The notes below the pieces were generated by a model. That model had not been told where the DNA came from. It made no database searches and worked only from the letters and a program-made list of their open reading frames with translations. Of a stretch of DNA of 64,000 bases, positions 15,738 to 53,968 are shown piece after piece. Position 1 is the stretch's first letter. The number at the start of each line of letters is the position of its first letter. Both the position numbers and the translations under genes were made by a program. Source of the DNA: a phage; sequence record PZ296772.1; one strand, given 5' to 3'.

Positions 15738-17018
15738 TTAATCCATAATAATTTTAGGCAATTTAACACCGAGTAAAACAGACAAGTCTGAACGTCCCGC
15801 CATTTTATCCATGTCCCCGCCATCAATTATTCTCGCTTCTTTTTCGTCTTTTGCTACTGTGTAAGGATTTGCTGATAAAGCATATCTAACCAATAATCCA
15901 ATAGACGGTTGCAAGCTTTCTGGATCAACTACAACTTTAAAAGCACCGACATGTTCCGGGTCATCTAAATCTACTCCTTCAGTGTATGGAGCATAAAAGA
16001 TGGACCCTACAATTTCTTTTTCGCCGATATTTTCTACAACACCCACAATAACATAATCTAACGGACTGTTGGTATCACAGTAAAGAGGTAATCCATTTGC
16101 CAAGAATCCATAAGCATTTTGTGAAAGATACTTGTCATCTTCTGGCTTATGTTTTAACCAACCAGAAGCAGCAAGAATAGCAGCTGCACGAGCTGAGGCT
16201 ACACAAAACGTTGCAGTATAAGTTGTCTCTTTTTGAATGTGTGATACCATTTCACACACCATTCGATATAATGAACGACCTGCTTCTGGAGCGGATGCAT
16301 AGCTCAAGTCAATAAATCCGGTGTCAGTAATTCCAGTAACTTTATAACGTTTCGATACAGTAATTAAAGACTGAAGAATATCTTTATTAATTTCATCAGC
16401 CATTTCAGTAGCAAGCAAATCTTCTAAGAAGTTAGGGGCATCAAATCCATTCGCTTCCAAATCTTGCGCTAATTCAACCGTGAGGCCAGTTTTAAGTTTA
16501 CGAGATTTGACTGAAGTTTGCCATTTATTAATCTGGAATCTTGCATCAGAAATTTCGCTATCAGAGCTTTCAAATTTGCTTGTTACCGCTGCATCTGAAA
16601 ATAACCGTACCTTTAAATGAACGACCGCAATCTGAAGAGCTAATTCTAGATCACTTTCTTGAATATCTGCAAACGGTGTATCTTCTAACACTTTATAGAC
16701 GATATTATTATATTTGAAAAAATCACCTTTATTTAGTGTGACTTTTGATTCTTCTGTTAGCTCAGTAATTTTTTCTCGGTCTACATATCCAACTTCACCC
16801 GCATAAGTAGCGCCAGTTTTAAATGTGAATTCGTTATCTGGGTTAAGATATTTGATACCATAAAAAGCAGCAACAGGTTGATTAGTTCTTTGTGTTGCTA
16901 CAATGTCAGAATATATTAATTTAGTCGTAGCGCGAGTCAAAGCAACGAGATTTGGGCGACCAATTGAGTTGCTAGTAGACGTTGTAGATTCACGCAATAA
17001 TTTTTGGATTTTACTCAT
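15738..17018 (-). CDS. 24: capsid vertex protein gp24
   Basis: 426 aa (T4 427); synteny next to gene 23. Confidence 0.85.
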   Translation of the reverse strand: MSKIQKLLRESTTSTSNSIGRPNLVALTRATTKLIYSDIVATQRTNQPVAAFYGIKYLNPDNEFTFKTGATYAGEVGYVDREKITELTEESKVTLNKGDFFKYNNIVYKVLEDTPFADIQESDLELALQIAVVHLKVRLFSDAAVTSKFESSDSEISDARFQINKWQTSVKSRKLKTGLTVELAQDLEANGFDAPNFLEDLLATEMADEINKDILQSLITVSKRYKVTGITDTGFIDLSYASAPEAGRSLYRMVCEMVSHIQKETTYTATFCVASARAAAILAASGWLKHKPEDDKYLSQNAYGFLANGLPLYCDTNSPLDYVIVGVVENIGEKEIVGSIFYAPYTEGVDLDDPEHVGAFKVVVDPESLQPSIGLLVRYALSANPYTVAKDEKEARIIDGGDMDKMAGRSDLSVLLGVKLPKIIMD

Positions 17019-17045
17019 TGCATTTTTTCCTTATGTGATATAGAT

Positions 17046-17053
17046 TATTTATA
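17046..17053 (-). promoter_or_regulatory. late promoter for gene 24
   Basis: Reverse complement TATAAATA 28 nt upstream of gene 24 start. Confidence 0.6.
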
Positions 17054-17059
17054 AAGATT

Positions 17060-17089
17060 GTTTACAACGTATTTGGTATGTGATACTAT
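17060..17089 (+). promoter_or_regulatory. early promoter (sigma70-type) in repeated cassette
   Basis: GTTTAC, 18 nt, TACTAT; the following 45 nt (17081-17125) are identical to 53491-53535. Confidence 0.65.
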
Positions 17090-17119
17090 AGACTTATCAA
17101 CTACAGAGGAGTAAACAAA

Positions 17120-17389
17120 ATGACTAAAGCACGTTTCTTACGAGATACTTTAAAAGTTCTAGAAGCTGAAGCAGTTAAGTTAGTAGAAAAATATGGTGCA
17201 AAAGTTAATGGTAATGCCTTCAACAAAGTATGGATGAAAGTTGATTCTGAAGCTCGAGCTAAAGGTTATTGGGCCACTGATAAACTTGCATCATTCAAAA
17301 ACAAAGACGGTTCTCTAGCATATGTCCAAGAAGGTATGCCTAATTGGCAAAATATTTTGAAAACTTACATCGAAATTGCACAGAAATAA
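17120..17389 (+). CDS. hypothetical early protein between genes 23 and 24
   Basis: 89 aa ORF with GAGGAG SD and strong early promoter; opposite strand to flanking late genes. Confidence 0.6.
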   Translation: MTKARFLRDTLKVLEAEAVKLVEKYGAKVNGNAFNKVWMKVDSEARAKGYWATDKLASFKNKDGSLAYVQEGMPNWQNILKTYIEIAQK

Positions 17390-17399
17390 AACCAAAAAT

Positions 17400-17417
17400 G
17401 GGAGACCGAAGTCTCCC
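17400..17417 (-). terminator. terminator hairpin after gene 23
   Basis: GGGAGAC-CGAA-GTCTCCC; on minus strand a UUCG-loop hairpin followed by ATTTTTGG. Confidence 0.65.
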
Positions 17418-17441
17418 AAAATAAGATTTAATCAATTAAGA

Positions 17442-19010
17442 TTAGATGCCTTTTACATATACACGGCGGAAGTAAGCGTTCTTACCAAGGCTGTTCAGGA
17501 TAGACGGCATACCGGACTGGATGCGAGCACCTGGAGCCTGCAGGGAACTTTCAGCAAACGGGTTAACACCGATACCGTAACGAGTTTTAAAGCCCATTAC
17601 CGGCTGGAAGTTCTTAGGATCGGAACCACGCAGTGGGGTAAGTGCAACGTAAGGAGCATAGTAAATACCTGCATCCATTTCGTTAGCGCCTTTGTAACCA
17701 ACGGTGAAGTAATCCTGTTTAGCATACTGGTCGATGTATACGCGGTATTTACCACCAAGTACACCGGCAAATACAGACTTAGTAGTGTCGGTATTAAAAC
17801 CAGAAGCCAGACCCTGTGCAGCGTAAGAAATACCAGTATCAACTGAAGCCAGTACGTTAACTACGTTACGGGAAGCGATAATGAAGTTACCTTCACCACG
17901 ACCGGTTTGACGAGCAATTTCAACTGCTTCTTTATCAATCTGGAACAACAGAGATTTAAAGCTTTCACCGGCCCAACGAGCACCACGGATATCAATCGGG
18001 TCCTGGAAGTCAAATACACCGGCTTTAGAACCCGGAGTCAGGGTCATACCAGATTTACCAACCTGTGCTGAGTAGTTAATCCAATCAACAACTTCACGGT
18101 TGATTTCTAGCATAATTTCTGTAGCCAGAATACCGCTCAGTTCAGCATCAGCATCCATACCGTGTACTGCACGGAGGTCTTGTGCTAATTCGATAGAGTA
18201 AGCAGCTTTCAGCTGGCGAGATTTAGCTTCAATAACTTGTTTATCGATACGGAAGCCCATTTCATTCCATGGGTTATCGGTAGAACCGTTGAAACCTTCC
18301 TGGAGTTCAGCGATAGAAGTAGCCATACCTTCAGCGATTTCTACCAGTGCACCAGCTTCCATTTGTTTCTTAACTTCTGCATCTAATTTAGCAGCATCAG
18401 TCGCACTAGAATCAAGTGTTACGATAGCAGAAGCTTGCAGATATACGGTACCAGTTTCTTGGAAGAAGTGAGTATAGATATCACCTACAACAGTAGTAGT
18501 GTCAGCAGCCAGAGCTGGGAATTTCTTAGCAGCACCCTGACCAGAGAACATCGCGTCCGGGGCATACATCGGATGGAAAGCTTCTTTAGCGCCAGCAGCG
18601 ATAGGGTCTTTACCATATACTGCACGGAGAGCAAATACCTGACCGGTCGGGCTGTTCATAGGCTGAACACCACAAATATCAAAAGCGATCAGATTAGGAA
18701 TAGCACGACGAACCATACCCATAACTGCTGGCCCAATTTGGGTTACTGCACCAGAGGTTTGACCTGCTGCGATGTTCTGAGCATTATAACCGTGGTCGCC
18801 ACCAATTTCAGCTTCGGTCAAGAAAGAACCAAATGCCTGAGCGATTTTCTCGTCTTTATATTCAGGGGATACTTCGAAATCTTTTTCCTGGTTTTCGAAG
18901 ATTTTAGCGATAATAGCCTGCTTGCTATTAGCGATTTCCGGCAGGCCTTCACCTTCCAGCAGTTCTTTCCATTTGTCTACGAGCTGAGCTTTAGTTTTGA
19001 TAGTAGTCAT
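17442..19010 (-). CDS. 23: major capsid protein gp23
   Basis: 522 aa (T4 521); synteny. Confidence 0.9.
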   Translation of the reverse strand: MTTIKTKAQLVDKWKELLEGEGLPEIANSKQAIIAKIFENQEKDFEVSPEYKDEKIAQAFGSFLTEAEIGGDHGYNAQNIAAGQTSGAVTQIGPAVMGMVRRAIPNLIAFDICGVQPMNSPTGQVFALRAVYGKDPIAAGAKEAFHPMYAPDAMFSGQGAAKKFPALAADTTTVVGDIYTHFFQETGTVYLQASAIVTLDSSATDAAKLDAEVKKQMEAGALVEIAEGMATSIAELQEGFNGSTDNPWNEMGFRIDKQVIEAKSRQLKAAYSIELAQDLRAVHGMDADAELSGILATEIMLEINREVVDWINYSAQVGKSGMTLTPGSKAGVFDFQDPIDIRGARWAGESFKSLLFQIDKEAVEIARQTGRGEGNFIIASRNVVNVLASVDTGISYAAQGLASGFNTDTTKSVFAGVLGGKYRVYIDQYAKQDYFTVGYKGANEMDAGIYYAPYVALTPLRGSDPKNFQPVMGFKTRYGIGVNPFAESSLQAPGARIQSGMPSILNSLGKNAYFRRVYVKGI

Positions 19011-36746: not shown

Positions 36747-36764
36747 GGGAGACCGAAGTCTCCC
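36747..36764 (-). terminator. terminator hairpin after gene 8
   Basis: GGGAGAC-CGAA-GTCTCCC, identical to the hairpin at 17400-17417. Confidence 0.55.
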
Positions 36765-51661: not shown

Positions 51662-51735
51662 GGCCCTGTAGCTCAACGGTTAGCAGCAGTCCCCTCATAA
51701 GGGAAAGGTTACCAGTTCGAATCTGGTCTGGGTCA
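51662..51735 (+). tRNA. tRNA, anticodon CAT (Met or Ile2 type)
   Basis: Hand-folded cloverleaf: acceptor GGCCCTG/CTGGGTC (one mismatch), T arm ACCAG-TTCGAAT-CTGGT, anticodon loop CTCATAA; 3 bp D stem. Confidence 0.6.
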
Positions 51736-51741
51736 TATATT

Positions 51742-51818
<77 letters not shown>

Positions 51819-52495: not shown

Positions 52496-52522
52496 GCCCC
52501 TTCCGAAAGGTTGGGGCTTTTT
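52496..52522 (+). terminator. intrinsic terminator
   Basis: GCCCC-TTCCGAAAGGTT-GGGGC then TTTTT. Confidence 0.65.
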
Positions 52523-52567
52523 GGTATAATAATAAATAGATAAGTTAATTAACTTAGGAAAAGCAAC

Positions 52568-53038: not shown

Positions 53039-53065
53039 GCCCCTTCCTTACGGTTGGGGCTTTTT
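53039..53065 (+). terminator. intrinsic terminator (near-duplicate of 52496-52522)
   Basis: GCCCC-TTCCTTACGGTT-GGGGC then TTTTTGGTAT. Confidence 0.65.
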
Positions 53066-53098
53066 GGTATCTAGGGCATAAAAATATTTCATAAAGAT

Positions 53099-53155: not shown

Positions 53156-53461
53156 ATGAGTCTTTATACTGAACTGAATAAAAAATCTGAAGAATCTGCT
53201 GAAACTATTTTTAAAAACGTGCAAAAGCGTATTCTAGAAAAGATGTATAACACTGCAGCTAAAGGTGAAAAATCTTGCCGGTTCCCGATGAGGTGTTCTT
53301 CTGATTTATGCGCAAATACTATTGAATGGCTGGAAAGTGAAGGTCTTACGGTAGAGAAAAACCCGGCGACTTCTATTGATAGCGAATCATATATTAGTAT
53401 TTCTTGGGATAAACCTCGTACGAATGAAGGACACTACAAGTTGTTAAGTTGGAAAAATTAA
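53156..53461 (+). CDS. hypothetical protein
   Basis: 101 aa ORF with GAGGAAA SD and early promoter. Confidence 0.55.
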   Translation: MSLYTELNKKSEESAETIFKNVQKRILEKMYNTAAKGEKSCRFPMRCSSDLCANTIEWLESEGLTVEKNPATSIDSESYISISWDKPRTNEGHYKLLSWKN

Positions 53462-53470
53462 AAATAACGA

Positions 53471-53499
53471 TGTACAAGCACCAAGGATGGTGATACTAT
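53471..53499 (+). promoter_or_regulatory. early promoter in repeated cassette
   Basis: TGTACA, 17 nt, TACTAT; downstream leader identical to 17081-17125. Confidence 0.6.
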
Positions 53500-53529
53500 A
53501 GACTTATCAACTACAGAGGAGTAAACAAA

Positions 53530-53694
53530 ATGACTACTTTAATTATTTGGTTCGATGAAAATGAAGAAACATACTGTGTGAATATCGGTGAAAGTCCAAT
53601 GCCTGAATTTGAATCCTCAGATAAAAACTCTGTTGTATCTTGGGCTGAAGGTTATAAAGCCGCTAAAGGTGACGTTGAAATAATTTACATCTAA
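53530..53694 (+). CDS. hypothetical small protein (not in ORF track)
   Basis: 54-codon ORF MTTLIIWFDENEETY; leader identical to that of the 17120 gene including GAGGAG SD. Confidence 0.5.
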   Translation: MTTLIIWFDENEETYCVNIGESPMPEFESSDKNSVVSWAEGYKAAKGDVEIIYI

Positions 53695-53712
53695 GTAAGT
53701 TTATGTTATAGT
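53685..53712 (+). promoter_or_regulatory. early promoter (weaker match)
   Basis: TTTACA, 16 nt, TATAGT. Confidence 0.45.
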
Positions 53713-53740
53713 AATCACATCAAATCAAGAGGAAAACAAA

Positions 53741-53968
53741 ATGGCTAAAGTTAGTATTGATGTCGTTGATTATGAATATACCGAAGAAGTTATTCGCAAC
53801 CGTCACCCTGAAGTTCGTATCGATTCAGCCCAAGATTCCAAGTTCTGGACAACTGAGCTTAATCTGAGTGGTCCTTATGAAGCTGTTAAGAAGTTCATGG
53901 TTGAAGAATACTGCGAAGGCATGCACCCGGAAGACGCCAAGTTTTATGTCAATTTGATTAAAAAATAA
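53741..53968 (+). CDS. hypothetical protein
   Basis: 75 aa ORF with GAGG SD and early promoter. Confidence 0.55.
   Translation: MAKVSIDVVDYEYTEEVIRNRHPEVRIDSAQDSKFWTTELNLSGPYEAVKKFMVEEYCEGMHPEDAKFYVNLIKK

Follow-up and report, generated by a model that had tools for sequence, protein, structure and literature searches.

A small early-type gene between capsid genes 23 and 24 of a Mosigvirus and the leader it shares with a distant early gene

The gap between genes 23 and 24, which encode the major capsid protein and the capsid vertex protein, contains in the phage sequence PZ296772.1 a small gene of 89 codons behind its own early-type promoter. We consider, with a probability of roughly 0.75, that this locus is a long-resident accessory early transcription unit in a variable slot of Mosigvirus genomes, that its leader recombined once with that of a distant early gene, and that the resulting repeat did not place the gene. 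In this account, the host sigma-70 RNA polymerase would start at an early promoter of the form TTTACA-17-TGaTACTAT and make a short mRNA. Its leader, about 24 nt long and unstructured, would carry a strong Shine-Dalgarno sequence, GAGGAG. The mRNA would encode a basic, soluble and mostly helical 10-kDa protein of the phrog_6003 family, which appears to be selected yet dispensable, and the transcript, antisense to the capsid genes, would then meet the hairpin of gene 23. The leader would have undergone an old recombination or gene conversion with the second gene in a Mosigvirus ancestor, and both copies would have evolved independently since then. The locus is a well-delimited example of the known plasticity of T4-type genomes and involves no new mechanism. 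An accessory early gene in a variable slot, with regulatory parts that are reused elsewhere, belongs to the routine genome biology of these phages.

The window, that is the whole stretch of 64,000 nt analyzed here, comes from a Mosigvirus, an RB69-like T4-type phage. A 3.4-kb stretch around the ORF is 98.5-99.3% identical to the phages HY126, ST0, HX01, JS09 and PhAPEC2. The gap between genes 24 and 23 is 423 nt long, and the ORF lies on the strand opposite to both flanking genes (Table 1). The first-pass annotation had described an 89-aa plus-strand ORF with its own strong early promoter at this place; both are present, and the promoter is of the T4 type. The only ORFs of at least 40 aa inside the gap are this one and an antisense ORF of 41 aa; no GIY-YIG endonuclease ORF was found there. 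An Rfam search detected no RNA family in the gap, and its only matches were two tRNAs at 51662-51815. The late-promoter box of gene 24 stands back-to-back with the early promoter, at the position where the A/T-rich upstream element of the latter falls. This box is kept in T4, T2, RB69, JS10, VR7, JD18 and a metagenomic contig (L011), and its RB69 ortholog was predicted as the late promoter Pl:109573 (Nolan et al. 2006, PMC1524935).

Table 1. Features of the 23-24 gap and of the related sites elsewhere in the window.
Feature	Position	Strand	Basis
Gene 24, capsid vertex protein, late gene, left neighbour	15738..17018	-	ORF list and annotation in relatives
T4-type late promoter box for gene 24, TATAAATA (plus strand: TATTTATA)	17046..17053	-	Sequence
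Sigma-70/T4-type early promoter: GTTTACA (-35), 17-nt spacer, extended -10 TGaTACTAT	17060..17089	+	Sequence
Copy A of the 47-nt exact repeat	17080..17126	+	Identity search within the window
89-aa ORF, phrog_6003	17120..17389	+	ORF list and profile match
Hairpin tGGGAGAC-CGAA-GTCTCCCa	17399..17418	.	Sequence and folding
Gene 23, major capsid protein, right neighbour	17442..19010	-	ORF list
Gene-23 terminator hairpin, exact copy at a second site, GGGAGACCGAAGTCTCCC	36747..36764	.	90% identity over 30 nt
Copy B: -35-like TGTACA 53471-53476, repeat 53490-53536, -10 TACTAT 53494-53499, Shine-Dalgarno 53516-53521, ATG 53530	53471..53536	+	Identity search
54-aa acidic ORF, phrog_5461, behind copy B	53530..53694	+	Profile match; ortholog of RB69ORF145c and of a 58-aa T2 ORF

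The early promoter has the features expected of the T4 type: a GTTTAC -35 region (TTTACA at 17061-17066), a 17-nt spacer, an extended -10 region at 17081-17089 with T-12, A-11 and T-7, and an A-rich upstream element, the stretch 17040-17059 being A/T-rich. The Shine-Dalgarno sequence GAGGAG follows at 17106-17111, 8 nt before the ATG. Transcription of the unit probably starts near 17096, and the resulting 5' UTR of about 24 nt is unstructured when folded. In RB69, the orthologous promoter is among the predicted early promoters as Pe:109605, with an early-promoter HMM score of 29.9 (Nolan et al. 2006, PMC1524935), and copy B probably matches another predicted early promoter of the same RB69 region; the shared leader and the broken RB69 ORF described below are not discussed in that paper. 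At least nine similar early promoters of the window form a family sharing GTTTAC...TGATACTATAGACYTATCAA and also GATACTATAGACYTATCAA. Like the RB69 early promoters of Nolan et al., they share an extended consensus through the start region, and nothing essential differs between the two sets. A promoter-like sequence lies at the equivalent place in T4, JS10, VR7 and the contig L011. The promoter sequence, together with the data on T4 segD given below, suggests that the ORF would be transcribed early.

The first-pass annotation had reported that 45 nt at 17081-17125 are identical to 53491-53535 in a distant hyperplastic region. The repeat is real, but its true length is 47 nt. Copy A covers the extended -10 region, the start region, the whole 5' UTR with its Shine-Dalgarno sequence, the codons ATG ACT and the next base. 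No match of this kind appeared in 100 shuffles of the sequence. When the first 46 nt of the repeat (17080-17125) are compared without gaps to the rest of the window, the best remaining match reaches 33/46; for the 26-nt leader part ACTACAGAGGAGTAAACAAAATGACT it reaches 17/26. The similarity of this pair is thus far greater than the background that the early-promoter family provides. The genus-wide early-promoter consensus accounts for roughly the first 21-24 nt (GATACTATAGACTTATCAAC), and the remainder of the leader, ACTACAGAGGAGTAAACAAA, is what the two Mosigvirus loci share beyond it; in the window it is unique to the pair. The distant copy was placed correctly. Copy B lies downstream of two tRNA genes among small variable ORFs, the content of which differs between relatives. 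The comparative work on the leader used GenBank phage records; a scan of the IMG/VR viral contigs for the exact leader pattern TATCAACTACAGAGGAGTAAACAAAATG gave 0 matches.

RB69 carries the repeat as well. Its copy B precedes RB69ORF145c and matches the 47-mer of the window at every position, so the repeat is at least as old as the genus. Its copy A has substitutions at 3 of the 47 positions. Because copy A has diverged in RB69 while copy B has remained unchanged, the two copies evolve independently and are not homogenized, and concerted evolution was ruled out on the same grounds, the RB69 copies differing from each other at those three positions. In LF82-9, copy B has one substitution, which falls in the Shine-Dalgarno sequence. 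The T2 ortholog of the copy-B gene has the stretch from -35 to about +10 in common with it and then a different leader. The shared leader was absent from every outgroup compared, namely T2 for copy B and JS10, VR7, L011 and T4 for copy A. As the outgroup leaders all differ from the shared one, they point to neither locus as the donor. The simplest account of the identity over ACTACAGAGGAGTAAACAAA would be a single old event in the ancestor of Mosigvirus, in which two unrelated early genes exchanged leader sequence by recombination or gene conversion.

The identity might also be kept by selection, if the 30 nt shared by the 5' ends of the two mRNAs were a common control site for RegB at GGAG, for RegA or for another operator-binding factor. 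The identity spans exactly the -10 region, the whole 5' UTR, the Shine-Dalgarno sequence and the first codons, and the constancy of copy B between RB69 and the window would agree with such a role. GGAG in the Shine-Dalgarno sequence of early genes is a known target of RegB in T4, and the GGAG found here would match it by analogy. However, the substitutions in RB69 copy A and in the Shine-Dalgarno sequence of LF82-9 copy B are difficult to reconcile with a conserved control site. LF82-4 and PNJ-9 have other leaders before the homologous ORF, and the orthologs in other genera stand behind unrelated leaders. Moreover, the leader is unstructured, and Shine-Dalgarno sequences bearing GGAG are common and require no identity over 47 nt. 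We therefore regard maintenance by a shared control site as very unlikely. It is likewise highly improbable that the identical 30-nt ends form a dedicated operator that co-regulates the two early mRNAs, possibly bound by the 89-aa protein itself; if this were true, the gene in the 23-24 slot would be a small regulator and not a passenger.

The distribution of the gene argues for a long residence in the slot. The gap sequence was found with 98-100% identity in 121 records, counting those that cover at least 80% of it. The 89-aa protein was found in 120 records when an amino-acid identity of 90% or higher was required, and every time it lies between genes 24 and 23. The state seen in the window is the commonest Mosigvirus state of the gap. 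Homologs with 31-38% identity occupy the same slot in Dhakavirus and Gaprivervirus (about 32% amino-acid identity in Dhakavirus JS10 and 38% in Gaprivervirus VR7), and a homolog with 61% amino-acid identity does so in a 173-kb metagenomic T4-like contig; all three have the same orientation. They lie between the same late-promoter box and hairpin, behind equivalent -35 and -10 sequences, each with a different leader, and the length of the ORF is kept across the genera. As these slot homologs have other leaders in other genera, the placement of the gene predates the Mosigvirus-specific 47-nt repeat and is independent of it. The homology search of the protein suggested by the first-pass annotation yielded the family phrog_6003 and homologs in the same slot of three genera.

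The gap varies widely beyond these phages. It is 83 bp long in T2 and 81 bp in the Klebsiella phage JD18, where it holds only the late-promoter box and the hairpin, and it is empty, with no early promoter, in phiR1-RT. In T4, the slot carries segD in the same antisense orientation, as the first-pass annotation had stated for the slot, behind a sigma-70-like sequence TTTACA-17-TGaTATTAT. The T4 locus resembles that of the window in its slot and orientation, in a promoter beside the late box of gene 24 and in a similar hairpin at the gene-23 end; it differs in that the window has no endonuclease gene and has the phrog_6003 ORF, which is absent from T4. In about one fifth of the Mosigvirus records (LF82-x, PNJ-9, ATK47/48, AV114, F2 and 005), the ORF is present as a Dhaka-type allele with a segD ortholog behind it. 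Dhakavirus IME341 has the same pair, and the segD ortholog of these phages is 57% identical to T4 SegD. Endonuclease genes in the sense orientation occur in the gap of KP27 and of Serratia phage 4S. Promoter plus gene therefore form a real indel module in a hot spot of insertion and replacement. The module may be ancestral to the coliphage T-even genera and lost in T2, or it may have spread horizontally.

These comparisons bear directly on the proposal of the first-pass annotation that a mobile promoter-plus-gene module had been placed here by recombination between repeated early-promoter cassettes, of the kind known as promoter-early stem-loop elements (PeSLs), with the repeat as its footprint. 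In a PeSL, a strong sigma-70-like early promoter is preceded by an A/T-rich tract and, immediately upstream, by a stem-loop terminator, and is followed by a Shine-Dalgarno sequence and a start codon; such elements are enriched in hyperplastic regions, beside variable ORFans, and at indel junctions, and can form mini-circles (Arbiol et al. 2010, PMC2839356; Comeau et al. 2014, PMC4122927). The variant of their promoter in T-even phages is TTTACW-N17-TAYWAT (Comeau et al. 2014, PMC4122927). The promoter described here fits this variant (TTTACA-17-TACTAT, with TG at -15/-14), and the A/T-rich tract, Shine-Dalgarno sequence and start codon are present at copy A. As in PeSLs, a strong early promoter of this make is repeated before unrelated small ORFs and is found at replacement and deletion junctions, although such junctions number two cases only, one of them linked to segD (right after GAGGAG in LF82-4, and the frd.3 fusion of PNJ-9). 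Promoter and gene are an indel relative to T2 and JD18, and crossovers in leaders do occur in relatives.

On the other hand, the stem-loop that defines PeSLs was not found upstream of either copy: the folding energies of the 53 nt preceding them are -2.8 and -3.1 kcal/mol (z-scores +0.5 and +0.2). Copy B is located in a hyperplastic region as a PeSL would be. Copy A adjoins a late promoter back-to-back and is embedded among the conserved head genes, although the content of its slot differs from genus to genus. The gene is not variable between sister phages, as PeSL-borne genes are, and is fixed across three genera; the crossovers fall in the Shine-Dalgarno sequence and leader instead of the stem-loop or the A/T-rich part. 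The 47-nt element works like a regulatory repeat of the PeSL type and is not a PeSL by definition. Placement through the repeat is also opposed by the occurrence of the ORF family with an equivalent promoter and unrelated leaders in the same slot of three genera, by the fixation of gene and leader in about 120 relatives, and by the geometry of the copies, which are direct repeats 36.4 kb apart with essential genes between them, so that the excision product would not be viable. The mobile-cassette proposal is therefore unlikely as a whole, although its indel component stands and leaders do act as crossover sites. Its author had named, as evidence that would count against it, the presence of the same gene and leader in the close relatives together with the lack of a repeat elsewhere; the former was found, but a second copy of the leader does exist. 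In the comparison of the 23-24 region that had been suggested, the content of the gap varies among T4-like genomes, and the same gene and leader recur in some 120 close relatives.

Elsewhere in the window, two hairpins that are 91% alike (GCCCCTTCC...GGTTGGGGCTTTTTGGTAT) lie at 52496-52527 and 53039-53070; an early promoter and then a small ORF follow each of them. These sites in the tRNA-proximal hyperplastic region are stem-loop-plus-promoter composites resembling PeSLs, and their nearness is a further point in favor of the cassette proposal.

The hairpin after the ORF does not help that proposal. Read on the minus strand, it has the canonical form of an intrinsic terminator for gene 23, with a UUCG loop followed by the U-run AUUUUUGGUUUU; on the plus strand it has an A-rich tail in place of the U-run, and it would stop the ORF transcript weakly at best. 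It is kept at the gene-23 end in RB69, LF82-4, JS10 and the contig L011. The possibility that it marks a cassette-specific end was ruled out, since an identical hairpin at 36747-36764 ends another late gene; it follows the stop codon of a late baseplate ORF (334 aa) and precedes the late-promoter box that belongs to the next ORF. The hairpin is thus a generic late terminator, a regulatory part that is reused. The layout of terminator and late promoter at 36747-36764 is that of the empty 23-24 gap of T2.

The product of the ORF is a protein of 10.2 kDa with a basic pI of 9.6, soluble and with no hydrophobic segment. It matches the phrog_6003 profile over its full length (residues 1-89, E = 7e-45), and the homologs of JS10 and of the phage ABPH49 match this profile too. 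Structure prediction gave two helices (3-25 and 31-48), a beta-hairpin (56-70) and a third helix (76-88), with a mean pLDDT of 87.5. No match was found in Pfam/NCBIfam or among PDB sequences, a fold search returned no significant or informative relative, and profile searches detected no nuclease domain in the ORF. Two long proteins of 2191 and 1347 aa (P0009 and P0011), which were matched in an exhaustive HMMER search, were rejected as compositional matches and not homologs; their multiple matching stretches fall on tandem Ig/cadherin-like repeats of surface-type proteins. A phrog_6003 homolog with 27% identity occurs in ABPH49, a non-T4-like Acinetobacter phage (L003 2501-2767), among small ORFs of the same strand with G+C-rich hairpins on the flanks. 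The family is accordingly wider than the T-even group and not bound to the 23-24 slot.

The dN/dS ratio is 0.057 between JS10 and LF82-4, both of which carry allele B, and 0.16, with saturated dS, between the window (allele A) and the homolog of 61% identity. These ratios are clear signs of purifying selection on the ORF. In RB69 (NC_004928, 109291-109531; L005 5292-5532), the ortholog is split by frameshifts into RB69ORF188c (41 aa) and RB69ORF189c (29 aa), either because the laboratory strain has a pseudogene here or because the sequence of 2003 contains errors. Other phages, mogra among them, have fragments of 51 aa. Together with the broken RB69 copies, these fragments indicate that the gene is dispensable. 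Our best guess is that the product is a non-essential early accessory protein with a role in host takeover or one involving nucleic acids.

A different view of the unit is that its promoter chiefly makes an early antisense RNA across gene 23 and that the ORF is incidental. The plus-strand hairpin has no U-run, making read-through into antisense gene 23 likely, and T4 retains the promoter before a different gene. However, the purifying selection on the ORF and the preservation of its length across genera speak against this view, and T2, JD18 and phiR1-RT manage without the promoter. An antisense function as the main role is extremely unlikely.

Relatives with the other allele show where the exchanges took place. 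LF82-4 equals the window from gene 24 through GAGGAG; beyond that point its leader and ORF are of the Dhaka type, like those of JS10 and PNJ-9. In PNJ-9, the Dhaka-type sequence starts just upstream of gene 24. The left junction thus varies from the Shine-Dalgarno sequence to the 5' UTR of gene 24, whereas LF82-4 and PNJ-9 share one right junction, which falls in the last ~9 codons of gene 23 (about 17445-17470). In these codons, LF82-4 and PNJ-9 differ from the window at about nine positions, all synonymous, so that AYFRRVYVKGI* is kept (L001 3440-3500; L020 1260-1320). Immediately after the recoded codons, within about 100 nt, the flanks regain 99-100% identity to the window. The recoding looks like a target or immunity polymorphism of a homing endonuclease, or like the end of a co-conversion tract.

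It is possible, and we put it forward tentatively as a complement to the main account, that the window carries a SegD homing site in its recipient form, cleavable and lacking segD, that the tract from the Shine-Dalgarno sequence to the end of gene 23 (about 17112-17470) is what would be co-converted upon co-infection with SegD-carrying phages, and that the divergence of alleles A and B reflects immunity of the target site. The segD orthologs lie directly downstream of the Dhaka-type ORF in LF82-4, PNJ-9 and IME341. The rapid return of the flanks to near identity, the constant right and variable left junctions, and the purely synonymous changes at the end of gene 23 are all consistent with homing. 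However, ordinary homologous recombination with a Dhakavirus could yield the same mosaic, and a 2010 review lists the target of SegD as unknown. For the pattern within the 23-24 gap, SegD-linked co-conversion would fit at least as well as modular shuffling at regulatory sequences. The gap can be empty or can hold a promoter followed by segD, by the small ORF, or by the ORF and then segD; with these states, four at the least, and its sharp boundaries, it offers a convenient natural system for the study of SegD homing and co-conversion. The shuffling of internal-protein (IP) genes in T-even phages (Repoila et al. 1994, cited in PMC4122927) is similar in that unrelated small genes are swapped between conserved regulatory flanks at a fixed slot; it concerns another slot and another family, and the exchange seen here is linked to a homing endonuclease gene.

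A second case of exchange in a leader was found away from the head genes. In the hyperplastic region of PNJ-9, the 54-aa ORF has been lost and a copy-B-type leader is fused to a frd.3 paralog, with the junction inside GAGGAG/AAACAAAATG (L008 1540-1640, compared with 53440-53760 of the window). The promoter half of this PNJ-9 sequence is Dhaka-like (GTGTTACTATAGACCTATCAA), which indicates that the leaders are mosaics. Early leaders thus act as crossover points of short homology in these two natural cases, one of them linked to segD. A Shine-Dalgarno sequence of 6 nt held in common can be long enough to accommodate a crossover in T-even phages, which supports the idea behind modular shuffling of the PeSL type.

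The T4 locus deserves a further remark. A sigma-70-like site lies directly upstream of segD, next to the late-promoter box of gene 24 (NC_000866, 107233-107322; L004 1234-1323), although the 2010 review describes segD as lacking any recognizable promoter. A time-resolved omics study of 2022 assigned segD RNA of T4 to the early class and detected the SegD protein, and the site upstream of segD fits this timing. Transcripts reading through from early promoters further upstream would be another explanation of the early RNA. The annotated start of SegD may lie three codons too far upstream, because the alignment of the orthologs begins at the second ATG.

Some minor features of the neighbourhoods were also noted. 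JS10, VR7 and the metagenomic T4-like contig each have two tandem paralogs of gene 24 (L002 1-2399; L011 1337-3901; L015 1501-4065), and the small antisense ORF adjoins the paralog that is proximal to gene 23. A 75-aa ORF resembling T4 frd.3 lies at 53741-53968 of the window near the tRNA genes and homologs of e.6 and e.8, not beside frd and gene 32. RB69 is annotated with the same arrangement, with frd.3 at 72055-72282 and a second 75-aa ORF (ORF245c) adjoining frd.2.
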